The notes under the pieces were generated by a model that made no database searches, was not told the DNA's origin, and saw nothing but the letters and a program-made list of their open reading frames with translations. DNA of 63,206 nucleotides, counting the filler, from Rhabdomonas costata (Eukaryota), in the NCBI GenBank assembly GCA_019059605.1. It is 26 parts of 26 records of this genome, joined end to end, with 100 filler letters (N's around TTAATTAATTAA, not from the genome) between each part and the next. Parts side by side here need not be neighbours in the genome. Positions count along the whole stretch, not along the records: positions 34,111 to 36,445 come from JAHMHO010003955.1; 25 more parts are not named here. One strand, given 5' to 3'. Every line of letters begins with the position of its first letter. The first letter of the stretch is position 1. Below are positions 8,363 through 60,059 of the stretch, piece by piece. Made by a program: the position numbers and the translations under genes.

Positions 8363-9570
8363 TCTTCAATCAAAGAAAATAACAGAAAATACCCTTTTCC
8401 CACTGAGCCCCAACTCATAAAACATAAACGAAAACGAAAAAAAAAGCGGAAAATCCTGACCATGAGCAAAGGGTGAGAGCAAAAACTCCTTTTCCCCGAA
8501 AGGGATAAGCCCATCGCATAGGGCAACGAAAACTGGGGGCAACAAAAGGTTATCCCAAGGTTTTAAATGTCGAATAAACTTGTTTTCGTAAAGAGAGGGC
8601 TAAGCCGAAGCAGGCTTGGGGGGTTTTGCATACTTTCGTTTCATACACGTTTTTTTTGCAGAGAAATAAAACGACACTGACAGCCACAATTTCCAGAGGT
8701 TCGTTTTACTGAACGTAAGAAAAAACGGGGCTAAGAACGGGAAGGGGGAGGGAAAAGGGAGAAAAAAGAACAACCAACACAATGAATTCGCGGGTTGGGG
8801 GGGAGAAACACCGGGTGAACATTGTAAACATTGTTTTAGCCAGACCCAGAAATTCAAGCAGTGCAACAAATAGCCCTTCGAATTATCACAACAGAGCTGA
8901 AAACAGTTGTGGAAAGCATCATTGCTTAGCGTAGACAATGCGCATCCCTGAGAGCTTGATACTCACCAAAACAGACACCGAAACCACACGCAACAGTCTT
9001 AGCTGCAAAACACACAGTCATCAACCCGATCGATTCGGAATGACAGCAAAACGACACGACACAGAACCCGGCACGCTCGCTTCGCCACACCAACCCCTCA
9101 TCCATCCCACGTGAGACGGCGAAGCGCGCAATGGCAAGGGGAGCGTTCACCATCCCCAAACCACACTGCCACCACCCGTCAACTGGGGACAGGGGGGTGG
9201 TGGGAATCGTGACGTCTCAAAAAGGTTCCCTTCAGTAAAAGGCCGTGAAGAGCGTGAACACTGGAACACAGGACAGGCCAACAACCAGCATCAGCCAGGC
9301 ACCGTAGCGGGAAGGGTAGCTCTTATCGGGACCCACATTGGCGATCGACATCGTGACTTGGTTCACCTGGTCCAAGCAAAAATCATTCTTTGGGCGTGAA
9401 GGAGGAAACAGCGAACTAAGTTTCCTGCGCCGAAATTCCTGTCTAGAGAAAGCACTTTCGCAGTCTAGAGCCTACAGCCGCTGGAGGCAGAACCCGACGG
9501 AAATGAAGTGGGGATCCAATGCATTTGAATGTATCATTCAAAAACAAAAAGGGCCATCCAACAAAGCAAC

Positions 9571-9643
9571 GCAAAGCAAAGCAAAGCAAAGCAAAGCAAA
9601 GCAAAGCAAAGCAAAGCAAAGCAAAGCAAAGCAAAGCAAAGCA
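9571..9643 (+). repeat. (GCAAA)14 microsatellite
   Basis: Perfect pentanucleotide array at the contig end. Confidence 0.95.
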
Positions 9644-24857: not shown

Positions 24858-26228
24858 ATGACGTCCGCCCCGACGCTTTTTGTCCCATTCTGCGGCGCCA
24901 ACGTTTCCTTCGTTTTTCGCTACCCAACAATGGAGCCTTACTGCAAGCCGGACTTTCCTTTTGTAAGGGGTGTTGATTGGCGGCAAATCGCAGCCAAGGT
25001 TCTGGACAGAAGCATCCCAAAAACTTTGCTTTGGGTGGACGCGAACTTTGAGAGCGGTGACAACCGCAACCTGCAGCAAGCCTTCACCTCCGCGGGCATT
25101 CGGATAGTGAAGGCCTCTTCGACCGAGGAGGGTGTGGAGAAGTACCAAGCTCTTAGAGGAGAGGTGGGGCTGCTTCCTGAAAGCAAGTTTCGCGTCATCA
25201 CCAACAAAACCCGCATGGAGGGTGGGCAGTGGAACTACATGGCCGGGGTGGAGCTGACTACTCAACTCCGGGCAGCGGGGTACACCGGCCCTGTGCTGAT
25301 CTTCTGCGGGGACTTAGTCCATGCGCGGCTTGACGTTGAGGGACAGGTGTACGTCCTGCTGGCCAACCACAACCTCGCGGCGAAGGAGTTTGGGTGTTTC
25401 GGGACGCCCTTTTTGTACCAGCAGCCCGCGCTGGACGACGAAACGGCCTCGAGCTTCTTCGCTCAGCTGGTGAGCCAGGGCATCGAGCGCAAGGAGCAGG
25501 ACGGCTTCGTGAAGTATTACATTCCACGCGAGTCCACGGCGCTGGGGGACCCCAGCCTGCCCACCAGGATCTTCACGGAGGTCGAGGCGATGCTGAACCG
25601 CAGTGTGCAGCTGCAGGACAAGCAGGTGGTGTTGGAGCGGGTGATTCTGATTGAGAACGGTGGGCTTCGGAAGCGGTTTGTGGATGCCCTGAAGGCCCTG
25701 GATGCGGAGCCCGGGATGGATTGGCCGCAGCACCCGACCCACGATGCCTGTCTCAACATCCTGCGGTCGTTCATCCCGGAGACCAAGTTCAGGAATGCTC
25801 GGCCCTTGCTGCTGTGGCACCAGACCCGGGACAGCACCGAGGGCTGCGTGAACAAGGAGGGGTACAGGGTGGACAAGGTGGGCACCATGATTGGCAACCA
25901 AGGGTACTACGGAAAGGGCATCTACTTCACCAACTTTCCCACGTACGCGTACACGTACGCCCGCGTCCCCCGCACGGCGGTCATGAAGAAGGGCAAGATC
26001 TGCCTCCAGCTCAGCTGGGTTTTGGTGGGTCGCCCCTATCACATGACTAAGATTGAGATGGGGCGCTCCCTGGCGCCCGGGTATACCTCGCACTACGCTG
26101 TAGTGAAGAGGACTGAGCCCATCTCGAAAACCCCCACCGGACTACCCGACGGTGACGAGGTGGTCATTTTCCAAGACAGCCACATGCTGCCCATGTTCAT
26201 CGTGGAGGTGAATACTCGCTCTGCGTAA
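24858..26228 (+). CDS. Intronless PARP-type ADP-ribosyltransferase with N-terminal pseudo-receiver (REC-like) domain, 456 aa
   Basis: C-terminus LLWHQT...GYYGKGIYFT...YAYTY...VLVG...GYTSH...DEVVIFQDSHMLPMFIV gives the PARP H-Y-E triad; N-terminus LLWVDAN...FRVITNKTR...AGVELTTQLRAAGYTGPVLIFCG follows the receiver-fold pattern. Confidence 0.85.
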   Translation: MTSAPTLFVPFCGANVSFVFRYPTMEPYCKPDFPFVRGVDWRQIAAKVLDRSIPKTLLWVDANFESGDNRNLQQAFTSAGIRIVKASSTEEGVEKYQALRGEVGLLPESKFRVITNKTRMEGGQWNYMAGVELTTQLRAAGYTGPVLIFCGDLVHARLDVEGQVYVLLANHNLAAKEFGCFGTPFLYQQPALDDETASSFFAQLVSQGIERKEQDGFVKYYIPRESTALGDPSLPTRIFTEVEAMLNRSVQLQDKQVVLERVILIENGGLRKRFVDALKALDAEPGMDWPQHPTHDACLNILRSFIPETKFRNARPLLLWHQTRDSTEGCVNKEGYRVDKVGTMIGNQGYYGKGIYFTNFPTYAYTYARVPRTAVMKKGKICLQLSWVLVGRPYHMTKIEMGRSLAPGYTSHYAVVKRTEPISKTPTGLPDGDEVVIFQDSHMLPMFIVEVNTRSA

Positions 26229-29200
26229 AGACTTGCCTCCCTCCACCTCTTGGGCTGGTCTAAGCGTTTTATACCGAAGAGGCGTCAAATGGAACCCTGT
26301 CTTTTTTCATTTTCGCCGTTGGCCACTGTTAACCCCTCGAACGAAGAAATGCGCCTGTTTTTTTAATGCTCGTTTACCCAAACCAGCCTAGAATTAGGCC
26401 TTCTGCGGTTCGACCTTTCCTGGAGCAGAAGCGTAAGCTGCAGTGCGTCTTACCGCTACGATGCTGTGAAAGGAATGTTTTCGTTCGCCGTGAAACCAAG
26501 CAATGTTTTCCATAATGGAATTGAACCCCCCATTTTTCAGTGTTGGTTAGCAAAACGGTCTTACCCAACATTAAGGGGTGGAACGGGGCCAAAAACCTTG
26601 GCTGTTCAAAGTATTTGGGGCTATTTGGATTTAGGTGGCGATGCATGGTTCCCAGGATTAAAATAGAAGCTTTTTTAATCCTGGGAACCGTGCATCGCCA
26701 CCACCACNNNNNNNNNNNNNNNNNNNNNNNNNNNNNNNNNNNNNNNNNNNNTTAATTAATTAANNNNNNNNNNNNNNNNNNNNNNNNNNNNNNNNNNNNN
26801 NNNNNNNATCCACAATCGCATGTGCATGTTCATAACGTGGTCGCATACCTTACATTAATTCATTAAGTCATACCTTAACAATAAGTATCTGAACCCTTTT
26901 TCAATGCCAAGCAGCCCACTATAGAACTGCACCTGCGCAGCAATGGTCGAGTTACTCTGGAGGTTGCGGGTTTTTTTTGGAGCATTAAAAGTGGCTGATA
27001 TACGTTCAGTTGGACTTAGAGAAGCACGAAGGTAAAACGTTTTCAGACTTTGCCCCCACCACGGGATACTCGTCGCTTAGGGTGGAGACAAGTGAAGCTG
27101 CGGCCCGAGCGGGAGGGGCGCCGGGGTAGTCAAATTTTCCATGATGTTGTTTTCCGGCACAGGAGCAGGGGAGACTGCACTATCACCTCACCCCCATACC
27201 ATGTTGCCTTAACAAAACGGCTGGGTAATGTACACAAATTAGTCTTTAGTGTTTTAGTGAGATAGAAAAAACACGACCGCTCGAATACGAGAAAACCCTC
27301 GGCCCCACTCACAAAGACGTCATTCTACGACTTTCCTTCCGAGTCAACAGGATTTTCAGGCGCTTGCATGGGGCACCATTTAGACCTCCGAACGGTGGTT
27401 TCCGGCAGAAGAAAAAGAAACAACATCCACAACCCACGCAATGCTAAAAAATGCAAAGGGCGCGCATTCTAGCGCGGGAATTGGCAATAGGTACAACCCT
27501 TCGTTGACTAAAACCACGAAAAATATATCTCCTGTTGTGTGGCAGGGCGATGGTGTAGTCAACACATACCCAATAGCCGGCCTCGAACTCCATGAGCCCA
27601 ACGCGGAAATGATTGTCGAACTCCCTGAGGAAACCCAGCATTTCTGCATGAGCAAGCTGCAACTGCTGCAGCAGTTTCGAGTTGAAGACCTGCGCGACGT
27701 GATAAACGTAGGTTAGCGGGAGACTGCCCTGGCCTGGGTTGAAGTTCCCGTCCAGCAAAATAACGCGGATCAGCTGCACCAAGGAGTCCTTCCAAAGGGA
27801 GAGATTGGGCAATTGGAGTCTAGCCCTGCAAACCGCCGCGAAAAAGAATAAGAAATGGCAATGCTTTTTGTTTATCAATGAACAGCATTTCAAAGGGCTG
27901 GCAGTATTGATTCGAACTTTGCTCGAATCGGGTGTGATGTCCCAGCAAGCGGTGACGGCCTCAACTGCCTGATGATCTCACGTTTAAGCAACGTGACACT
28001 CGGCCGTGGTAAAGTTGGATTTCATTGGGGGCGGGGTATGGGATGCTGGTTGTCCCCATCAAATCAAACCGTCACCAATTAATCCACAAAAACGTCTCAA
28101 ATCTGTTGTTTCGCCGCTTTCACCTTGCCTCTCCTCACAGATCACATTCCAAGCTGTCGATTGTGTTCCGGTATCATTTGCTTTTCTGTGTCTCTCCACC
28201 CCGACGTTTTCCAACGAGCCGACTCCGCACCGCGCCGTACGGAGGACCCGCACCCGCCACCTAGCTAAGCATCGGCCTTCTTGATCAAGCGCGACAGCTG
28301 CAGGAGCGCCTAGACGCGCTCTCGAACTCGCAAACACCGAGGGCCCCGACCTACCCCGCCACCACTGATGAGGGCCATGCAGCAGGCATACAAACATGCT
28401 CCGCACCCAACTCCCACCATCACCAACTTCCGAACCCTAGCGATTGCGCTCCCAGAGCCGCTTCGTGACTGTCGGAGGTCGCCAGCTGTAGGTCACTAAC
28501 CGGGGCCAGCAGTACGATATCTCCCAGCCCCCACCTCGCCCCTGCCGCAGCTGTGGGGCTTTTCATTGGAGCTGGCAATGGCCCGTGCCCCAGACCAGCA
28601 AAACTCCTCCAGGGGAGTGGGGCCTTCGTGCAGAACCACTCCCGATGATGCCCACGCATGACTTGCTCGTCCCCGTTTTTCACAATGTTAGACCGCCAAC
28701 TGCTTTTGGTCAATTGAATTACCCCACGCGTTGGTGGTCAGTTCTCGCTGCAAACCCCTTCCGGCACCCTCTTCACCCGCCGTCTTCCTTTTGGCTGGTC
28801 CTGGAGCCCTTTTCTTGCTCACTCTTTTATCCGTCTCACACTCACTCCTCTATGCCAATTACTTTTTGGCAGTGCATTGACGACATTTGCTCGCTCATCG
28901 TATCTTCTCCAACTGACAGGGTTCCTGTTGAACGCAAAAGGTGTCACCACCCCCCACGTAAATGATCGCTTGGCTTGGCAAATCCATTGAGCCCACTGAT
29001 TTGTGTGGATGGATTGGCATCCTTTGGCGTAGTTGACCAGGGGATGTTTCTAACTGATGGTCCAGGGTGTTCTGCCGCCTCGCAGCTGGGGACGTGCGTG
29101 GCCCCGCGCGACAGCGCCCTGTGCACCCCCGGCTCGCGACNNNNNNNNNNNNNNNNNNNNNNNNNNNNNNNNNNNNNNNNNNNNTTAATTAATTAANNNN

Positions 29201-32898: not shown

Positions 32899-33154
32899 TA
32901 CTTTGTCATTGTTGTTAATTCACCCAAGTTGCGGCCGAATCGCCGAAATTGAAAAGACAGGAACGCCCCCTTCGCCCCCGCGTTGACGTTTCAGTGCCAC
33001 GCGATACAAAACGTCTTTTTGCATCGCTTTACCCTTTGTCGTACGTTGCCTGCCATTTCAAAGGAATAGAAGGGCATTTTTTCTGTTTCCTCAGCGGTTG
33101 TTGTCCTTGTTTCCCTTTCCCTTGTTTCACAACGAAGTATTATCGCCGGTGGTG

Positions 33155-34010
33155 ATGTGTGACTCATCTGTGGCGATTTCCGGGTCGAGCTGGCCATCCG
33201 AAAGCCAGCCTGAAGGCAGCAACGATCGCAGGTGGGAGGCACCTGACCTTGGCATAACAACTGCCCGCCAGAACCTTTGCGTCTTCTCCAATGATCCTTC
33301 CACATCTGAGGAGCCAGCTCCCGGGGCAGCCCCGCAGAGTGAGGGACTTGTTGGGGGACTTTCCGAGCAGCCAGGTGGGGAGTGTGATGGTGTGTCCCAC
33401 TCGGTGAGGTCAGGATCGGAGCCAACCCAGCCCACCAGTCCTGGTCTGCAAAGCACCCAGCACAGGCCCTCCCAGGCGGTCCCAGAACTTCGCCGGAAAG
33501 TGTCTTCCTGGGGTGCCCTTTCACCAGCCGAGCGATCAGGTCCTCCTTTATGGACCAATCAGTCCTCATTTGCTTTCCCATGCTTTCTCCTTTTTTAAAT
33601 AGTTCTTCTCGTGCGCCGAATGTCGTTTGGATCCCAGTAAGGATTACAGCTGGGGAACGTCTTCGTGTCGAATTTAGTGGGTTTTCATTGATAGTCACTT
33701 GCAACCTCTCCGCTCTCCCCTTTCCCCAACCACACAAATACACACACGCTCTCTTATCCAGCGGTGCAAGTTTACCGTGAGCAGACGTTGCTGAAGCGGC
33801 AGGCCATGGCCGCTGTGGTACAGCAGGTGCTGCCTTTCCCCCCTTCTTTCTCCCGCGTCTTCACCCTTCGGTGTTCGCTCTCGGCTTCTCACTGTTTCAC
33901 TCAGGCGGAAGTGGAGTTCAAGAGAGACTGCACCTTCCAGCCTCGGATCAACTCCTCTTCGGGTCCACGCAAGCAACAGCCGGTCATACCCCCCCCCCGC
34001 GGCCACCGTT
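33155..34010 (+). CDS. Hypothetical protein; exons ~33155-33539, 33762-33826, 33905-34010
   Basis: Phase-compatible GT-AG introns; S/P-rich exon followed by AVQVYREQTLLKRQAMAAVVQQ|AEVEFKRDCTFQPRIN. Confidence 0.5.
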
Positions 34011-34118
34011 NNNNNNNNNNNNNNNNNNNNNNNNNNNNNNNNNNNNNNNNNNNNTTAATTAATTAANNNNNNNNNNNNNNNNNNNNNNNNNNNNNNNNNN
34101 NNNNNNNNNNGTTGGAGT

Positions 34119-34450
34119 GTCACTGACTATATCATTGATTCTTGTTACTAATTCTGTAATTGATTATGACATTAATTCTGTCACTGACTATATCATTGAT
34201 TCTTGTTACTAACTATGTAATTTATTATGTCATTGATTCTGTCACTGACTATGATATTGATTATGTCATTGTTTCTGACTATGACATTGATTATGTCATT
34301 GTTCCTGTCACTGATTATGTCATTGAATATGTCATTGATTCTGTCATTGATTATATCATTGTTTCTGTCACTAATTATGTCATTGATTCTGTCATTGATT
34401 ATGTCATTGTTTCTGTCACTGATTATGTCATTGAATATGTAATTGATATA
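34119..34450. repeat. 12-nt minisatellite (consensus GTCATTGATTAT; variants GTCACTGACTAT, GTCATTGTTTCT)
   Basis: Roughly 27 degenerate tandem units; open in one frame on each strand (VIDY on plus, NDII on minus). Confidence 0.9.
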
Positions 34451-34457
34451 TATATTG

Positions 34458-34762
34458 GGGCTGTGGAATTAAGAGGAAATAGACCATGAAAGACCATATA
34501 TTTAAAAATATTAAATCATATAAAAAATACATTTTTTAACATCTTATTATTGATACAAATAAATTTTATTTTTAGTATTAAATATCTAAAAATAAAATTT
34601 ATAAAAATCCTTATTTCCACAGCCCCATTTTTAATATTTTATCATATTTTTTATATTGTCCCAGTTTGCCCGTACATAGGGTATTTTTTAAATTTATTTT
34701 ATTTAAAAAATAAAAAATTTAAAATTTCAAGAATATTTTTAAAATTTTTATTACCACAGCCC
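34458..34762. mobile_element. Putative MITE-like element bounded by GGGCTGTGG/CCACAGCCC inverted repeats
   Basis: GC-rich motif at 34456-34473 (+), 34610-34627 (inverted, 17/18 match) and 34754-34762 (inverted) in very AT-rich DNA; internal perfect 17-bp stem 34559-34575/34586-34602. No target-site duplication seen. Confidence 0.45.
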
Positions 34763-34866
34763 ATCATCTTTGATTGATAAAGTTTAACATTTTGTTTTAG
34801 AGTTGATATGAGATCCATGTTAATAGATAGTTTTTTAAGCTTGATTCGTATAAATAATTTAAAAAA

Positions 34867-34874
34867 TCAATTTT
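34867..34874 (-). promoter_or_regulatory. AAAATTGA Mimiviridae-type early promoter motif
   Basis: TCAATTTT on the plus strand, ~50 nt upstream of a minus-strand ATG at 34818. Confidence 0.55.
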
Positions 34875-34952
34875 TTATATGAATTTTTAATAAATTTTAT
34901 TTATAAAAATGATATAAGAAATTTATTTATAAATCATATAACGTTATATAAT

Positions 34953-34964
34953 AAAAAAAATGAA
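34953..34964 (+). promoter_or_regulatory. AAAAAAAATGAA, variant of the early promoter motif, upstream of ORF 35100
   Basis: One-mismatch AAAATTGA variant ~140 nt upstream of the ATG, near where AT-rich spacer gives way to a more GC-rich leader. Confidence 0.4.
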
Positions 34965-35099
34965 ATAATATTTATCTGCAAAGTTCAATAAGATCAAATC
35001 TTATAGATCACTTGGTGATAACAACATCCGCTGCTTTACGATTTCTGCGCATTAACAATCGATTATCTCTTCGAAGTCCATTGCATTATCAACATCACA

Positions 35100-36071
35100 A
35101 TGGCTGCTCGTCACAACCGTTTGTCTGGATCTGCTACGTCTGCAGTTCGTCCTGTTCAGTCTGAAGTTAGACCTACGTCATCTACTTCTCGGTCTATTGC
35201 TTCGATTGCTGCTCCGCCTGTTGCTCCGCCTGCTGCTCTGCATACTGCTCCGCCTGCTGCTCTGCATGCTGCTCCGCCTGCTCAGTCTGCCGGATCTGTG
35301 AGTATTGAGTATGATATCGATGTTTACGTGAAAATGCGGAGAAATCCGTCATTCTTCACAGATCAACGACTGCAGGCAGCGGCGAAGGCCGTAGAAATAG
35401 CATGTGATTACTATAATCACATGGTTGCAGTGGCTGCAACAGTAAACATTGATCGTCTTCCTGACCCAAAAAAATATGAGTTAGAAATGACTCGACATTA
35501 CACAAGTGACTCAACGTCTATCAGATCTTTATATGGGATGACGGACCAGTACACGGTACCTTTTGACTCGGAAACAGACACAGTAGTTTGTGCATATATA
35601 AATCCTGGTCGCAATGATACAGTAACAAATACGACAATTATTATAAGATTTATGAGAGGATCTGTAGTTCTCCTTCGGTTTAGTGGACCGATAAATCTAA
35701 AAACTAGGAGATGTACTTTTGTCGATTCGTGGTTTGAACAAGTAGGAATAGTGTTCGCACCGATTACTAGTCAAGCAAATCAAAATTATGATCACAACAG
35801 ATGTCCCGTGCGATGTCCTTTTTGTAGAAAAAAGATTCTACAGATACGTGACTATCCTTGTAAGCTCAAGTGCTATGTTTGTCATATGGGAGTTGAACAA
35901 GGCGAAACGGCAACGCCAACAGATGAACCGTTGCCTGAATCTCGTATGATGGTGCAGTTTTACTGCGATGAAAAACCAAATAGTGACTGTATATGTAAAC
36001 ACGGTTGCTGTAGAGATTGTTTTGATAGAATGTGTTCTGCGGCAAGATCAACACAACTGTACGATTCGTAA
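35100..36071 (+). CDS. Intronless virus-like protein with A/P-rich N-terminus and C-terminal permuted RING-type zinc finger (323 aa)
   Basis: CPFCR precedes CYVC...CKHGCCRDC; A/T-ending codons unlike the host genes; no introns and no obvious Shine-Dalgarno. Confidence 0.75.
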   Translation: MAARHNRLSGSATSAVRPVQSEVRPTSSTSRSIASIAAPPVAPPAALHTAPPAALHAAPPAQSAGSVSIEYDIDVYVKMRRNPSFFTDQRLQAAAKAVEIACDYYNHMVAVAATVNIDRLPDPKKYELEMTRHYTSDSTSIRSLYGMTDQYTVPFDSETDTVVCAYINPGRNDTVTNTTIIIRFMRGSVVLLRFSGPINLKTRRCTFVDSWFEQVGIVFAPITSQANQNYDHNRCPVRCPFCRKKILQIRDYPCKLKCYVCHMGVEQGETATPTDEPLPESRMMVQFYCDEKPNSDCICKHGCCRDCFDRMCSAARSTQLYDS

Positions 36072-36130
36072 TAACTGACAAGACGGTAGATTAAGTCAAC
36101 TGTTTAAAAAACAATTAATTTAATTACAAA

Positions 36131-36162
36131 ATTTTATAATTATTTTGTAATAATTATAAAAT
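36131..36162. terminator. Perfect AT hairpin between convergent genes (Mimivirus-type 3'-end signal)
   Basis: ATTTTATAATTATT-ttgt-AATAATTATAAAAT: 14-bp perfect stem, 4-nt loop; 60 nt after the plus-strand stop and immediately after the minus-strand stop. Confidence 0.75.
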
Positions 36163-36163
36163 A

Positions 36164-36445
36164 TTAATTATCATCGTCTTCTATTTTCTCAAGAATTTCA
36201 GGTAATTCTTCATTTATTTTATATTTTCGTTTTAAATAACTGTATAATTGTATTATCGTTATTTTCTTTTTACCTTTTTCTCGTGTTTTACTTTCTTTAC
36301 CTTCTTTTTTTGAATCTTTTGAATCTTTAGCATCTTTTTTTAATTTTTCTGTATTTTCTTTTAATTTTTTTTCTAGTTCATTTATGTAATAACTTAAATA
36401 TTGTGTTTTCTCATTTTGATCTTGTATATAATAATATGAAAAAAA
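36164..36445 (-). CDS. 3' end of an AT-rich K/E-rich gene (absent from the ORF track because its start is off the contig)
   Basis: 93 open codons FFSYYYIQDQNEKTQYLSYYINELEKKLKENTEKLKKDAKDSK...LYSYLKRKYKINEELPEILEKIEDDDN* in very AT-rich DNA where stops would otherwise be frequent. Confidence 0.75.
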   Translation of the reverse strand, partial: FFSYYYIQDQNEKTQYLSYYINELEKKLKENTEKLKKDAKDSKDSKKEGKESKTREKGKKKITIIQLYSYLKRKYKINEELPEILEKIEDDDN

Positions 36446-41800: not shown

Positions 41801-42899
41801 AAAGGCTCACATTTGTTAAAATGGAGACTCCGAGCATATCACAGGCGTCAGGAAGTCAAAGGTAAACACTCAACGCTCAATGGCAAACAACATGCAGGCA
41901 TTTTGCTAAAAAAACATCTTTGTGTTGGTGTTGTAGTTAAAGCTTTCAAACAAGTAGCATATGTGTACAGGAAGGAGTGGGAATCACACCAACTGTTATG
42001 TTACCGATCAAACGTTGGAAAAGTTGGAAAGTTGGAATTGATAGGCAACATTCCAAGCGCCTCAAAATGCCTCGTAATTACAGCCAAGTTCTTGGTATAT
42101 AACAAGGTTAGTCACGACAGCGCCTAATGTGCTTCACATGAGTTCAGTAGGTTGTAAGTCCAAAGCCGTGACCGTAGTCCTGCTAATCCACCGTGACAGT
42201 TATGTGGATATGCAGAAGGGTTTGCCGTAATACGTGGTAGCATAGAAATTTTTTGAAACATCGTGTGAAGTCAAAGGCGCGTACAGGATGTGTTAGTGAC
42301 GTCATGTGCAGAAAGAGCGCAAAGATAAAATGAGGTCACACCTGCAACCTGCTTTATCGCATTTTCAAGCAGATGGTATGTTAAGGAAACCACTGTGATG
42401 TGCAATGCACGTAGCATCATTGTTTCTACAAGTCGTCGTGTAGTGGCAGAGTGTAGTTTGGGAAGTTTCGCACAAAGTAACGTATAAGAATTTGCGAGAC
42501 AGTATAACTTATAACAAGACGTTCAGCGACACGCAATGCGTTAATCGCTTGTAATTGATTGTATTACACAGAGAGTGTGAGTTGTTTTCAAGACCATTTT
42601 GTTAGTGGAGCGAAAAATCATCTTTTGTCCGCAACTGTGTGTGATTAACCCTAACCATTACCATATACCTAATCCTAACCCACACCACCATCCCGCCATC
42701 TCCATTACTTTCGTTCTCAAACCACTCCCGCAGATCCACAAACTTGCTCCACTTCACTCTTTTCCCCCTTCCATATATCATTCCTGTATTTAGCCGGTAC
42801 TCACCATGCTCTTTCATTTTGAGCGATTTTTCTCGTATGATTTCAACACTCCCAACATTCCAGAAGACACTCCTAAATCTTAGCACACATCGCACATCT

Positions 42900-43640
42900 C
42901 TCACTCGTTATATCCACCAGAGCGGCATATCGGCTACAAATGGGTTATTTCACTGCTTGGCTTTTGGAGCATCCATCCATATTCTGCACGAAGAACAACC
43001 TCAATCCTCACCGCCTTCCAAAGCTACCTTCTCTTCTTGGTTTCACCACCACCTCACTCCTCCTCCGATATTTGTGTTTCGGCGTGGGCCCACATGTTCC
43101 TGCTCTACGACATCCACGTCGGGACTTCCCGCTTGCACTGGAACGCCGTCAAGACCATGTCAAACCACGAAAAACGACGCGTCCGTGTGTGGTTCAATCC
43201 ATCGTGGCTCGGCGCAGTTCACCGACTCACCACAGCCAATGTCCTCGACTATTTTTCCATCATCATCTTCTTTCATGGATCTTTATGATCCGTGTGTCAG
43301 AGCTTCTTCGTCTCCGGCCCACATACATCTCTCTCTCACATTCGTGTCACGCGTGAGAATCACACCATTTCATAAGTATGCAGCATCCTTCCAGCACCTC
43401 TTCTCGATTGCCACGTTTCTCTCAAGCTCCATCCACAGCCATCAATTGTTCAACTCCCACAGCGCCCTCGCCTACGTTCGCATCATTGTCTCCCATGGTC
43501 AACGCAGCACCCTCACATTTCACACTTTTCGTAGGGCAGGCGCTGAAACCCTCATCCAACTTGGGTCCCCGCTTCCATCCATCGCCATGTGGGAACGTTG
43601 GAGAAAGTTATGTGGAATTATCCGCCCCCATCCAGTCCAA
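42900..43640 (+). pseudogene. Degenerate tyrosine recombinase of DIRS/Ngaro/Crypton type
   Basis: Box I LSWIFMIRVSELLRLRP (~43270-43320) and box II LTFHTFRRAGAETLIQLG...IAMWERW (~43512-43601) lie in different frames. Confidence 0.75.
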
Positions 43641-46600
43641 TTATCCACAGCTTTCTATATGCATCCACTACCACGCAACCACATTCTCCATTGCTTGTTA
43701 CTCCTGGCCACTGTGCACTCTGTGGTATTTACATTTCCTACANNNNNNNNNNNNNNNNNNNNNNNNNNNNNNNNNNNNNNNNNNNNTTAATTAATTAANN
43801 NNNNNNNNNNNNNNNNNNNNNNNNNNNNNNNNNNNNNNNNNNTTGGGGGCAACGCAAGCGAATGTCTTCCCAAGCCGACAGCAACCCAAGGGGGCCGGGG
43901 GGGGGGAGATGGTCATTGGGTGGCAAGTCTGCTGGGACAGCTGCGGTGAGGGAAGCGACGAGAGAGCGGGGAGAATGGTGAATTGTGGTGTGTCCGGGAT
44001 TACAGTACCAATGACTTTCCAGTTACACTCTAATTTCCCGTTATGAAAATCAAGGCACATTAATAGTAATAATAGTATACGCAACACTACTTCCACCACA
44101 AAAATACCACCAAAATGGTATGATAAATGATCTGCAACGGCATTTTGTTTTTACCAACCGACAGCACTGTTCTGCGTTCTGCTGCAGCCCGTTTTGGGAT
44201 GAAGGACACACCCCAAGAGATGACTGATGGGCAAGAAGGCAGGCAGAGAGGAGGGGACAACGAGCGATGGAAAACCAGAGAACAAAAGGAGAGCAGCAGA
44301 ATGCATTTTACGGAAGGGCATATGCAAGAGAAGTTTCTGGCGCACTCCCAAATCCAAATCATTTTTTGAGGGTGGATTTACTGAGGGGTGAGCGGAGTTG
44401 ATGGGGAAGAGGGGGGTAGAGAGGCACAATAGAAGAGCACGGGAAAAGTTGAAGGAGGGCGGGAAAAAAAGGGCAACGCGCGAGAATGAGAAAAGGAAGA
44501 AGGGATGCAGGTAAGAGGGGCCGGTGAGTGCTTGCTTGCAAATCACAGCGTGGGAAGCAGAAGGCGAGGAAGACCAGGAGGAAGTAGAAATGTGGGCGAG
44601 CCAAGAGCACAATAGAGCTGCGAGTTGGGTCGGGGAAGGAACAGGCAATGATGCGCGGGAGGTCCCCCCAACACCGGTGTGTGTGGTAACCTTAGCAAAA
44701 CCGCATTCCTGGTGACTCAAGCCCGTCCAATAGTCGCCATCTTGCGCGTGGGAGCGGACGAAATCAATGATTATGATTCGGCGGGAGGGGGGAGGGGAGT
44801 TAAATTGACACATTAAAACGGATATGTATGGTTATTATGCAAACGGAGCGTTGACGCAAAGGTCCCTTTCTATCCCACGGAAGGCAAAGACTGTGCCAAA
44901 GAGTGAATACAACAACCGCATTGCTTTGACGAAGTGTCGCAGCTACAAGACAAGGCGCGCAGATGAGCGAAAGGGGGGGCACCAAAGCCCAAAGTCTGAC
45001 CCGAATCTGAACAACCACAGGAAGCCACCGCAAAGTAGCCAAACGGAACGCAACCAGCAGTCAACCTCATCAAAGCGTCAAGGCCTTTTCCGCAGCCAAG
45101 GTGGCTCATCGCAGAATGTGCTGGTCTCCCCACCAGATCGGGAAGCAGAAGTCACGGTGTTCGAGAGTATGCTTCACCAGTAAGTCATCTTCCCCCAAAG
45201 GAGGCGGGACCCCCTGGATCAATGCCTGCAACAGGATGCAACCAAGACTGTGTTTGTGACCGAGGAACCAATCGCAAATGTCTTGCCGTGCAAAATTGTC
45301 ACTGTAAGGCCACACCTATTCCAATTGCTTCAGCCATCGTGCGCCAATTTGTAGTACCGCCCCATGCAACCTCTGTCTCTTGACTCTGACACCCATCGAC
45401 CCACACAGACCCGCACACCCATGGCGGGCCATGGGTGTGTCGAAAAACGGGAGACGTGTTCAATAAACAACGGCATAAAAAAAAAAGAGCAGCAACCGGA
45501 GGAGGCATGTTGGGCAAGTTGGACGGAGTGGGCTGCTCATGGAATGCTTCTGTCTGCAGCTCAGGTCATAGCAAGAGCCATCTTATGGGGCTTTTCTGGA
45601 TTTGGACAGAGAAGGAAATCATACAATTGGCACATCGGCAGCACGAGGCGAATGAGGCGGATTTCTGGACCGAACATTAGCCCACAGGTCAAATTCATTG
45701 CGTCACTGAACTCGACTTTTTTGTGCAGGGTACTCAGGATAACGTACCCTGGCCGGCGTCCTCCGAAGAAGAGCCTCGCAAGCGGCCACGAACGCCATAG
45801 TCCTGGTATTTGTCAGGAACCTCCAAGCTGCCATACAGCCGAGTCAGATAGCTGAGGCACACAGGCAAACGTATCAGGGGCGACAATTCCCACCAATCTC
45901 GATCACCAGACTTCTGCTACGGATAATGATGGGTACGCACCCCCTTTCTCTTCCCCACACCTATATGGTCCACTTGGCAGGGGTGGCCTTTTCTGAAGAG
46001 GACTCTAAGTCCACTCCTTGGTTTCCCAACCCCAACACACTGAACTCACTGGGCCTCATCCTCACCCCCTGACTCCCTGACGGTCCACTTTTTAACTAAT
46101 AGTGAGGGTTGGTGCCTACCTGGGGAAGCAGGGTTGGCCATCCCGATGTCGCAATTCGCCCCCCCACCCACACACNNNNNNNNNNNNNNNNNNNNNNNNN
46201 NNNNNNNNNNNNNNNNNNNTTAATTAATTAANNNNNNNNNNNNNNNNNNNNNNNNNNNNNNNNNNNNNNNNNNNNTTTGTGGAAGTTGTTTTGTTAGCTT
46301 TCAGGGCTATTCTTCTTTCTTTCTTTCTTCCATTCTCCGCTGTCACACAAAACCCCCAAAAACAGGCACGCACACACGCACACACCCAAAAACCCGCGCA
46401 ACCCGCGCACGCTTATCATGCACGGCGGAGGACACACACACGTGCTCGCGCGAACGCACCGCTTTTCCGGTGGTTACCGAGACACAGAAGAGGGGAGAGA
46501 AACCTTTACAAACAGACGAGGGACAAGAGCGGTGGGAACCCCATGAAAAAAATGGTGGGATTCGTAATGAAGCAAGAAACCAACACAGGTCCCCCAACCA

Positions 46601-58439: not shown

Positions 58440-60059
58440 TTTTGTTGGGCAGCATCAACGTGCGCCCTTCTTCGTCCTCCGCAAAGGGAGGCAGCACGGG
58501 GTCCGTGGGCAGCCCCAGCACGGGCGGGACCACAACAATGGACAGCACAAACAGCAGTTGGAGCGGCACCCTGGGCACCACCCCCACTCCTTTGGGGGGC
58601 CTGGCCGGTCACCGTGGTGGTCTCACCCGTGCGGTACAGGTCCGAGCCCAAGTCCCTCTTCCCCCTCGTTCGTGCGCCGAGTGGGGAGCAACCAATTTCA
58701 CGCTGAACAGGGCAGATGTGTGGAACGAATCTCTTGGTGTAATACGAGTGAGTAAAACAGATAAAATTTGAGGTTTACAAATTGAAACGAAGTTTTTCTT
58801 GCGAATTCTTTACGGATCAAAGGGGAAAATTCGAGTCTGTGAGTTCCCTGCCTCATAATGGAACTGGAGGCGTTTCAAAACTTAGGTGTGGGTTTTTGAC
58901 TTCATTTCTCTGCTCTGACAAATAACGGTACCTCTGTCTTGAGCACACACATATGCATACACTTCAGGGAGCCTCCGCCGCGATGGCCTCTTCGGTGCTG
59001 CGAGAGGACTGCGGGCTGTTGCTGGGACGGGGGCTGCTAGGCTCGCCAACTACCGCTTCGGGGGAGATGGCCCCGACCAGCTCTGCTGCCGCGGGAATCC
59101 CGGGGATGTCCTTACCCCCGACAGCGTCCGGTGTTTTTTTTTTTGGAGTTGTTCCGGCGCACGTCTCCTCTCCCGGCCCTTCATGGGCTTTTACCTTTTG
59201 GTTCTTTGATTGTGGAGGGAGGAGGGTTTGCTTTACGTAATCTTTCTTTATTAGTTGGCAACTGCTTGCTCGCAGCAACCCTGGTGAGGTACAGAATGCG
59301 CATCGTGGGCTGATGTGTGTGTATAGTCGTCCAGGCCAAGTGCTTAAAGTGTATGTGTGTGTGCCGGCGGTGGAACAGGCGCAGTACGGTGCTACACAAG
59401 AGGGAGTGAGGAAGCAAGGCTGAGGCCCCACGAGACAAGAAGAGAAGCCCGGGCAAGCGGAGAGTCCGGATGGCATCAGGGACATTTTAAGGCAACCAAG
59501 CGCGTCCACCAGGAAACGGGGTCCAAACCCAGAGTGGGGTTGAGGACCCAAGCCCACAAAGGCAGTCGCGCCCAAGGGGCAGCTTACGAGCGCGGAAGGT
59601 TGGGTACCCATAAAGAGATCTCTAAGCCCGCCAATTGGAGTTCCCAAGGCGTACATTATGGATCGGGGGTCAGATAAAAGATAAGAGAGAGGGACAAGGT
59701 TATGTGGACTAATGAGGGGGTGAGGCCCGATGTGCCCAACGTGCTCCATCGAAAGTTGGGAGCCCCATTGGGGGGAAGTGGACCTCGAGTCCTCCCCAGA
59801 AAAAATCACCCTGGTCAAGTGCACCATGTGTGTTTTTGTGTTTGCCAGAGTCACCAGCTGTGGCTGGTATTTCTGTTTGCCCCCTAGGTGCCCCCTAGGT
59901 GCGGTTTTGTTTGCAGGGGAACCGCTCGCACTTTCGGCTCTGGGGGGCATCCCGACGATGGGCTCTGGAGGAGTGGGGACGCAGTCCGAGACGGCTTCGA
60001 CAGTCTCAGTGACCTACACCGCTGCCCTACAGCCTGTGCACTGGGAGGCCCTCCAAGAA
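58440..60059 (+). CDS. Hypothetical S/T/G-rich protein; exons 58440-58639, 58968-59130, 59917-60059
   Basis: Three GC-rich exons with phase-compatible GT-AG boundaries; no family recognised. Confidence 0.5.

Follow-up and report, generated by a model that had tools for sequence, protein, structure and literature searches.

The window analysed here is a 63,206-nucleotide stretch of the Rhabdomonas costata genome assembly GCA_019059605.1, made up of 26 contigs of about 2335 bp chained via N/TTAATTAATTAA spacers, and the contig under study, JAHMHO010003955.1, lies at positions 34111-36445. A first-pass annotation of this DNA had described the contig as sharply unlike the other 25 and had read it as a fragment of an Imitervirales-like giant virus. 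All the features on which it relied were found in place, with unequal evidential weight, and the compositional contrast was among those that held. The GC content of the contig is 0.31, compared with per-contig values of 0.44-0.586 in the remaining 25 (mean of about 0.52, calculated by hand from those values), and with a median tetranucleotide distance of 0.070 it stands about twice as far from the other contigs as these do from one another (0.026-0.035). The lowest GC content of any 300-bp stretch was 0.16 in this contig and at least 0.32 in every other one. By segment, GC content amounted to 0.28 in a minisatellite at the left end, 0.175 in the spacer at 34448-34984, 0.43 in a first open reading frame (ORF1), 0.16 in the spacer between the tails of the two main ORFs, and 0.20 in the second of these (ORF2). 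The intergenic DNA had been called extremely AT rich, in agreement with the GC content of 0.16-0.18 measured for noncoding DNA. By composition, the contig is foreign to its 25 companions in the window. No further contig of such AT-rich composition was present among the 26, a number at which this says little, and the low-GC parts of two other contigs proved on inspection to be ordinary sequence containing no junction with AT-rich DNA. The genes and hairpins of the contig are as follows.

34111-36445, unstranded: compositional outlier contig of 2335 bp, GC content 0.31 (GC, tetranucleotides, and 300-bp GC minima)
35100-36071, plus strand: ORF1, 323 amino acids, orphan, ending in TAA TAA (ORF scan and homology searches)
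35207-35282, plus strand: in-frame 12/24-bp repeat coding APPAALH(T/A), in the low-complexity N terminus of ORF1
35802-36035, plus strand: Cys-rich C-terminal domain of ORF1, residues 235-312, with 13 Cys and 2 His
36167-36445, minus strand: ORF2, K/E-rich, orphan, cut by the contig end so that the last 93 codons remain
34559-34602, unstranded: hairpin H1, perfect 17-bp stem, 10-nt loop
34682-34712, unstranded: hairpin H2, perfect 12-bp stem, 7-nt loop
36131-36162, unstranded: hairpin H3, perfect 14-bp stem, 4-nt TTGT loop

Both ORFs are real by stop-codon statistics, and both, translated with the standard code, are uninterrupted and terminate in TAA. ORF1 extends from stop to stop over 349 codons in DNA of 43% GC, which is far above chance by estimate, and for the 93 open codons of ORF2 in DNA of 20% GC, shuffles gave P=0.008. 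GC contents at the first, second, and third codon positions (GC1/2/3) are 0.51/0.49/0.31 in ORF1, whose sole Trp codon is TGG, and 0.35/0.17/0.08 in ORF2. The proposed use of A/T-ending codons was thus borne out, with a GC3 of 0.31 and 0.08, respectively, whereas the GC3 of two host ORFs that match Pfam domains strongly is 0.75-0.78. The codons preferred by ORF1 are AGA, GCT, TCT, CCT, GTT, and AAA, whereas those preferred by the host ORFs are CGC/CGG, GCC, AGC, CCC, GTG, and AAG, and the frequency of C at third positions is 0.11 in ORF1 versus about 0.36 in the host. Since this codon usage is opposite to that of the host ORFs, ORF1 is no host-adapted gene. Its higher GC content stems from its amino acid composition and not from the insertion of a host-like gene into AT-rich DNA.

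The ORF1 product consists of an Ala/Pro-rich N terminus, a middle region, and a C-terminal Cys cluster. Within this cluster, seven of the eight RING ligands could be placed by eye in canonical order (C258-x2-C261 ... C299-x-H301-x2-C304-x2-C307-x4-C312), and an extra Cys cluster precedes them. RING patterns of canonical and of relaxed spacing both failed to match ORF1, and its best Pfam hit was a RING model (PF24921) at E=0.1, whose score of 13.1 bits falls short of the cut-off of 50. The zinc-finger gene of the first-pass annotation therefore stands as far as a Cys-rich, RING-like domain is concerned, but draws no support from Pfam or from canonical spacing. Judged by its residue pattern, the C terminus of ORF1 is best described as Cys-rich and RING-like.

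The hairpins exceed chance. The perfect hairpin reported between the convergent stop codons is H3, which sits inside the 95-nt tail-to-tail spacer, 60 nt past the ORF1 stop (36071) and 5 nt past the ORF2 stop (36167). H3 folds with a z-score of -4.37, and none of 200 shuffles folded equally well. The signal even exceeds what had been claimed, with three perfect hairpins on the contig instead of one. Perfect stems of at least 12 bp with loops of 3-12 nt were counted and compared with segment-wise dinucleotide-preserving shuffles: three were seen versus 0.018 expected, and three were reached in 0 of 500 shuffles. For stems of at least 14 bp, two were seen versus 0.002 expected, again with no shuffle in 500 reaching the observed count. 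Perfect hairpins with stems of at least 12 bp were otherwise confined to 1 of the 25 other contigs, which has one. The hairpin excess is a strong signal and statistically solid. H3, between the ORF1 and ORF2 stops, has the position of the palindromic hairpins that occur 3′ of stop codons in Mimiviridae, as read from sequence alone, and H2 overlaps the stop codon of a short ORF on the minus strand (39 codons, running from 34818 to 34699).

The left-hand part of the contig is occupied by repeats, a palindromic element resembling a miniature inverted-repeat transposable element (MITE), and a stop-free frame.

34118-34447, unstranded: 12-bp minisatellite, consensus TGTCATTGATTA, 27.8 copies, 69% matches (repeat search)
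34457-34626, unstranded: composite palindromic MITE-like element with exact inverted GGGGCTGTGGAA arms (12 nt) at 34457-34468 and 34615-34626, enclosing H1
34490-34774, plus strand: stop-free frame of 95 codons in DNA of 17% GC (ORF scan and shuffles)

The left end of the contig falls within the minisatellite, at the left end of which a 61-bp higher-order duplication shifts the frame, the same peptide-like repeat running through all three frames. Exact copies of GGGGCTGTGGAA number two in the whole window, both of them in the MITE-like element; elsewhere in the window there are two further matches with one mismatch each (0.55 expected window-wide), and a degenerate third arm lies at 34748-34762. 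The region at 34440-34645 folds as a single long composite palindrome (z -6.12; 0 of 200 shuffles as good). As for the stop-free frame, which harbours H1 and H2, a run of 95 codons was matched by 4 of 1000 whole-spacer shuffles and by 1 of 2000 local shuffles. This frame continues a repeat ORF (34160-34486) in phase with a single TGA between them, contains no ATG, has no Pfam match, and shows no codon-position gradient (GC1/2/3 of 0.17/0.16/0.18, with G at 5% of first positions). These traits, together with the two hairpins inside it, speak against a gene; period-9 repeats may help keep the frame free of stops, and it could still be an eroded gene. Reading TGA as Trp would fuse 34160-34777 into 206 codons, and this was the only alternative code with any effect; it was not adopted because the resulting stretch has no coding gradient and no Pfam match.

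We favour, at a rough probability of 0.45, the reading that the contig is giant-virus-derived DNA, from Nucleocytoviricota or a satellite element, most likely endogenous and with its lineage left open. By analogy with published elements, it most likely sits in the protist genome as an endogenous viral element rather than representing a free virion. The GC contrast of 0.31 versus about 0.52 has the same magnitude as the pattern given for Euglena in the available excerpts of PMC12455990 and was counted for a viral origin, although a deviation of GC and tetranucleotides from those of the host, as seen here, is not virus specific. The orphan status of the proteins would also be compatible with a viral element, given that about 50% of Euglena element proteins are without match, as would the load of repeats, with its minisatellite and MITE-like palindrome. 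If the contig is giant-virus derived, its genes would bear their own AT-rich control regions, and the convergent transcripts of ORF1 and ORF2 would end at the common hairpin H3, which would act as a structure-defined 3′-end/polyadenylation signal. The ORF1 protein would combine a disordered Ala/Pro-rich N terminus, a middle domain, and a C terminus that is RING-like and binds zinc. Many giant-virus RING proteins are assumed to act as ubiquitin-ligase-type adaptors on host proteins, and ORF1 could serve in the same way. The minisatellite and the MITE-like palindrome would then be repeat load typical of such elements.

Several results weigh against a giant-virus origin, beginning with the lack of viral homology, of a core gene, and of a host junction on the 2.3-kb contig. 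Homology searches with both ORFs, which the first-pass annotation had suggested, returned no relative, viral or other. Word-indexed protein searches scored none of 2292 candidates for ORF1 and, among proteins of 162-2000 amino acids, none of 1168 for ORF2. Pattern matches were confirmed in neither IMG/VR (0 of 3 for ORF1 and 0 of 76 for ORF2) nor metagenome contigs (0 of 62 and 0 of 594, respectively), and exact-DNA scans of IMG/VR with a 31-mer from ORF1 and a 21-mer from a GC islet, as well as a scan of the same database with a degenerate minisatellite pattern, gave zero matches. ORF1 also lacked relatives among PDB sequences (best E 0.29) and PHROGs (best E 0.05), as did ORF2 in Pfam and PHROGs. 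Among 1.84 billion representative proteins, eukaryotes included, ORF1 had a single match (E=7e-4), which was discarded as a homologue; it is compositional and covers the Ala/Pro APPxxL repeat only. Single-sequence AlphaFold models reached a predicted local distance difference test score of 32.2 for the whole of ORF1 and 41.3 for its C-terminal 109 amino acids, too poor for a fold search. The nearest neighbours of ORF1 according to a protein language model were mostly RING-type clusters labelled Nucleocytoviricota (7 of the 9 neighbours listed with the whole protein as query and 7 of the 10 listed with residues 66-323). Their scores of 0.78-0.85 are under the 0.9 level, shuffled proteins in the calibration of the model reach 0.8 one third of the time, and the recognition value for ORF1, 1887, is under the mark of 2300; this neighbourhood may be taken as a weak lead. 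A Pfam search of all ORFs of the contig found nothing better than E=0.08 and no core viral gene, transposase, integrase, or capsid, in line with the statement of the first-pass annotation that the contig bears no core viral gene. Genes by which Nucleocytoviricota are recognized (major capsid protein, PolB, A32 ATPase, VLTF3, RNA polymerase, D5, and SFII helicase) are thus not represented, nor is ORF1 or ORF2 homologous to known giant-virus proteins; 2.3 kb could easily lack the core genes.

Coding density weighs in the same direction. Confidently coding DNA makes up 54% of the contig (1251 of 2335 bases in ORF1 and ORF2), against the high density, 85% to >90%, by which Nucleocytoviricota are characterized, and specifically against >90% in the Euglena elements and 85% in Bodo saltans virus, as given in the excerpts of PMC12455990 and of the source on Bodo saltans virus. 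Adding the repeat ORF and the 39-codon ORF, for which there is no support, would raise the figure to about 73%, and 610 nt at 34490-35099 are without a confident gene. The ORFs had been described as closely packed, which is true of the tail-to-tail pair, 95 nt apart, but the contig holds just one complete ORF and one 93-codon fragment. The hairpins bring a complication of their own, in that the position of H1 and H2 within the stop-free frame makes them insecure as 3′ signals; should that frame be coding, H3 would be left as the sole candidate 3′-end signal. In addition, Asfuvirales, the sole lineage published for Euglena, are described in the excerpts of PMC11788076 with T-rich 3′ motifs rather than hairpins.

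The promoter-type motifs do not help the giant-virus reading either. Two had been reported, an exact copy of AAAATTGA and a variant of it.

34865-34874, minus strand: AAAATTGATT, containing an exact AAAATTGA and matching 9 of 10 bases of the core early promoter motif of African swine fever virus (ASFV)
34953-34964, plus strand: AAAAAAAATGAA, a one-mismatch variant of AAAATTGA, 136-147 nt upstream of the ORF1 ATG

Both are present and in divergent orientation (TCAATTTT at 34867-34874 on the minus strand and AAAAAAAATGAA on the plus strand), but their frequency as a signal is at chance. AAAATTGA was seen once on the contig versus 0.50 expected in Markov shuffles of the AT-rich parts (P=0.39) and 0.68 expected in dinucleotide shuffles (P=0.5), and the other contigs of the window hold two more copies. 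AAAATTGATT precedes the start codon of the 39-codon minus-strand ORF by 47 nt, and the variant near ORF1 is well over 100 nt from its start; an enrichment of AAAATTGA just upstream of starts, of the Mimiviridae type, was not found on the contig, whose 2.3 kb are not enough for statistics on promoters. The other promoter-type motifs fared no better: AAAATTGAWT had P=0.19, a single exact match to the pacmanvirus 3′ motif WWTTTATTTTTTAWW, on the minus strand at 34702-34716, had P=0.09, TATATA had P=0.38, and T7 runs were below expectation. The motif had moreover been presented as a hallmark of Mimiviridae, but it is not theirs alone and is also found in ASFV and pacmanvirus according to the excerpts of PMC8906413 and PMC11788076. 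There, the core early promoter motif of ASFV is given as AAAATTGAAT (PMC8906413), and 44% of pacmanvirus genes are reported to have AAAATTGA, in addition to a T-rich 3′ motif (PMC11788076). AAAATTGA is therefore not Mimiviridae specific and provides no pointer to Imitervirales.

What the giant-virus reading has to be weighed against is, above all, the DNA of another organism in the sample, either another AT-rich eukaryote or a poorly sampled microbe, in which case ORF1 and ORF2 would be an ordinary nuclear gene pair. Moderately GC-rich coding DNA between very AT-rich spacers is typical of AT-rich eukaryotic genomes, and the contig presents coding DNA at a GC content of 0.43 between spacers of 16-18% GC. 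The 610 nt without a confident gene, the low coding density, the K/E-rich low complexity of ORF2, and the orphan status of both ORFs in all searches, as expected of an unsampled lineage, fit such an origin as well. We nevertheless consider it somewhat unlikely: neither ORF is related to any of the 1.84 billion representative proteins, a second contig of this kind is missing from the window (which carries little weight at this sample size), and perfect hairpins are in excess, one of them exactly between convergent stops. Such an excess is not known as a feature of AT-rich eukaryotic genomes. The contig could also be resident in the host without deriving from a giant virus, as an AT-rich transposon, as a selfish element of polinton-like or other type, or as an island of satellite-rich DNA in the protist's own genome. 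The exact 12-nt inverted arms of the MITE-like palindrome, the frame-breaking higher-order duplication of the minisatellite, the low coding density, and the stop-free frame broken by one TGA, possibly an eroded gene, all agree with this. So does a caution from Euglena gracilis, in which curation discarded 20 of 28 initially predicted viral regions, keeping scores >1 and removing repetitive regions and false positives, as described in the excerpts of PMC12455990. Against an element of this sort, the exact GGGGCTGTGGAA arms occur nowhere else in the window, Pfam finds no transposase, integrase, or capsid, and the codon usage is opposite to that of host genes, which makes long residence with host-type expression unlikely; we regard this origin as decidedly improbable.

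An organelle (plastid or mitochondrion) or an AT-rich bacterial endosymbiont would account for the low GC content and, if TGA were read as Trp, for the ORF of 206 codons. It would also account for stem-loops past genes, a habit shared by plastids. Other results speak against it. The tRNA and Rfam scans of the window found no tRNA and no Rfam family; Pfam, PHROGs, and the other searches produced no organelle or bacterial gene; none of 48 pattern matches to ORF1 in 185,579 prokaryote species genomes was confirmed; and blastn of the whole contig against plasmids gave no match. The single Trp of ORF1 is TGG and both ORFs end in TAA under the standard code, the stop-free frame lacks a coding gradient, and nothing about a Cys-rich protein with an Ala/Pro repeat resembles an organelle product. 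A scan for bacterial-type promoters and terminators was uninformative (20 versus 14.4 expected and 2 versus 0.5 expected). We judge an organellar or endosymbiotic origin to be very improbable.

The other contigs of the window are eukaryotic nuclear DNA. An ORF for a midasin-like AAA_5 ATPase (14623-16431, plus strand) is open for 603 codons from its contig start and is 31-42% identical to fungal, algal, and oomycete midasins in a search limited to longer proteins; at so low an identity, no close relative of the host lineage is represented in the set of long proteins that was searched. A PARP catalytic domain (E=3.6e-8) lies in an ORF of 497 codons (24735-26225, plus strand) on a contig of host composition, and an OYE domain was also found by Pfam among the host contigs. 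Stop-to-stop ORFs of at least 250 codons number eight in the whole 63-kb window, and this scarcity suggests interrupted genes. Neither the domains, the midasin identity, the GC content of about 0.52, nor the ORF lengths of these contigs are diagnostic of euglenids. Open frames without a Pfam family (E<=0.001) were seen in host-type contigs at 42645-43742 (plus strand, 366 codons), 32991-33860 (minus strand, 289 codons), and 58964-60013 (minus strand, 349 codons), and a (CAAAG)n microsatellite of 16.4 copies with 97% matches occupies a host contig end at 9562-9643. A long near-perfect inverted repeat with arms of about 30 nt (26637-26697) was observed 10 nt from the end of a host-type contig of GC content 0.55. 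Its core, at 26647-26689, pairs perfectly over 17 bp across a loop of 9 nt, and the repeat may represent the end of a MITE, a palindrome with a regulatory role, or an artefact of assembly.

In its broad form, the giant-virus-like reading is plausible but unproven. As to the narrower proposal of an Imitervirales-like virus fragment, the foreign DNA and the hairpin excess stood, but the motif is at chance and unspecific for lineage, and no relatives were found. We think it unlikely that the contig belongs to an undescribed, euglenid-associated hairpin-using giant virus (Imitervirales- or Pithoviridae-like) or to its virophage or polinton-like satellite, although, were this true, euglenids would harbour two independent giant-virus lineages, this one and that of the Asfuvirales elements of Euglena gracilis. 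If the contig is viral at all, it adds to very recent evidence of giant-virus DNA in euglenids, and its hairpins hint at a different lineage from the Asfuvirales already published, which would widen the range of Discoba viruses. As it stands, it is a small orphan fragment, and its value is that of a flag for the low-GC fraction of the assembly.

Comparison with known systems begins with the ORF1 protein, which resembles giant-virus RING proteins in its C-terminal Cys/His cluster, with seven of eight ligands in RING order, and in having Nucleocytoviricota RING clusters as its nearest language-model neighbours. It differs from them in its noncanonical spacing, its incomplete last ligand pair, and the lack of a significant HMM match. 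Similarly, one exact AAAATTGA, extended as AAAATTGATT and lying in AT-rich DNA upstream of a small ORF, recalls the early promoters of nucleocytoplasmic large DNA viruses, whereas its single chance-level copy, its location before the 39-codon ORF only, and the mismatch and distance of the copy near ORF1 are unlike them. The hairpins find a closer parallel. In the excerpts of PMC4402537 and PMC11814242, the polyadenylation signal of Mimiviridae and Pithovirus consists of hairpin-forming palindromes without sequence conservation, and hairpin 3′ signals are described for virophages and, per review, Iridoviridae too. The contig shares with this rule AT-rich DNA and nonconserved palindromes past stops, one of them common to a convergent pair; unlike these viruses, it carries no RNase III, poly(A) polymerase, or Imitervirales marker, two of its three hairpins lie inside the doubtful stop-free frame, and its hairpins are candidate 3′-end signals.

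The closest comparison is with Euglena gracilis, for which the excerpts of PMC12455990 (J Virol 2025) describe eight giant endogenous viral elements that are 86-311 kb long and add up to about 1.9 Mb. Their GC content is 25-37% versus about 51% in the host, and their tetranucleotide usage deviates; they contain tandem repeats and terminal inverted repeats, have been invaded by transposons, and are heavily methylated at cytosines. Giant-virus DNA in euglenids thus already has a published precedent. The first-pass annotation had stated that no characterized giant virus of euglenids is known; no isolate was indeed found in the literature searches made here, and the only Discoba virus isolate named in those excerpts is Bodo saltans virus, but the novelty premise is weakened because the endogenous elements of Euglena gracilis are already in print. 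In the excerpts of PMC12344493, Euglena figures solely in connection with methyltransferases. The Euglena gracilis elements were placed in Asfuvirales, near pacmanvirus and ASFV, so that the only published euglenid precedent points to Asfuvirales while the hairpins point to hairpin-using lineages (Imitervirales and Pithoviridae). Those elements were defined by capsid, A32, PolB, VLTF3, and other genes, unlike the contig, which at 2.3 kb and about 54% coding is far smaller and less dense and has no core gene or asfarvirus-like protein. Likened by features rather than by sequence identity, the contig shares with the elements of Euglena gracilis a low GC content in a more GC-rich host, unusual tetranucleotides, proteins without match, tandem and inverted repeats, and possibly erosion.

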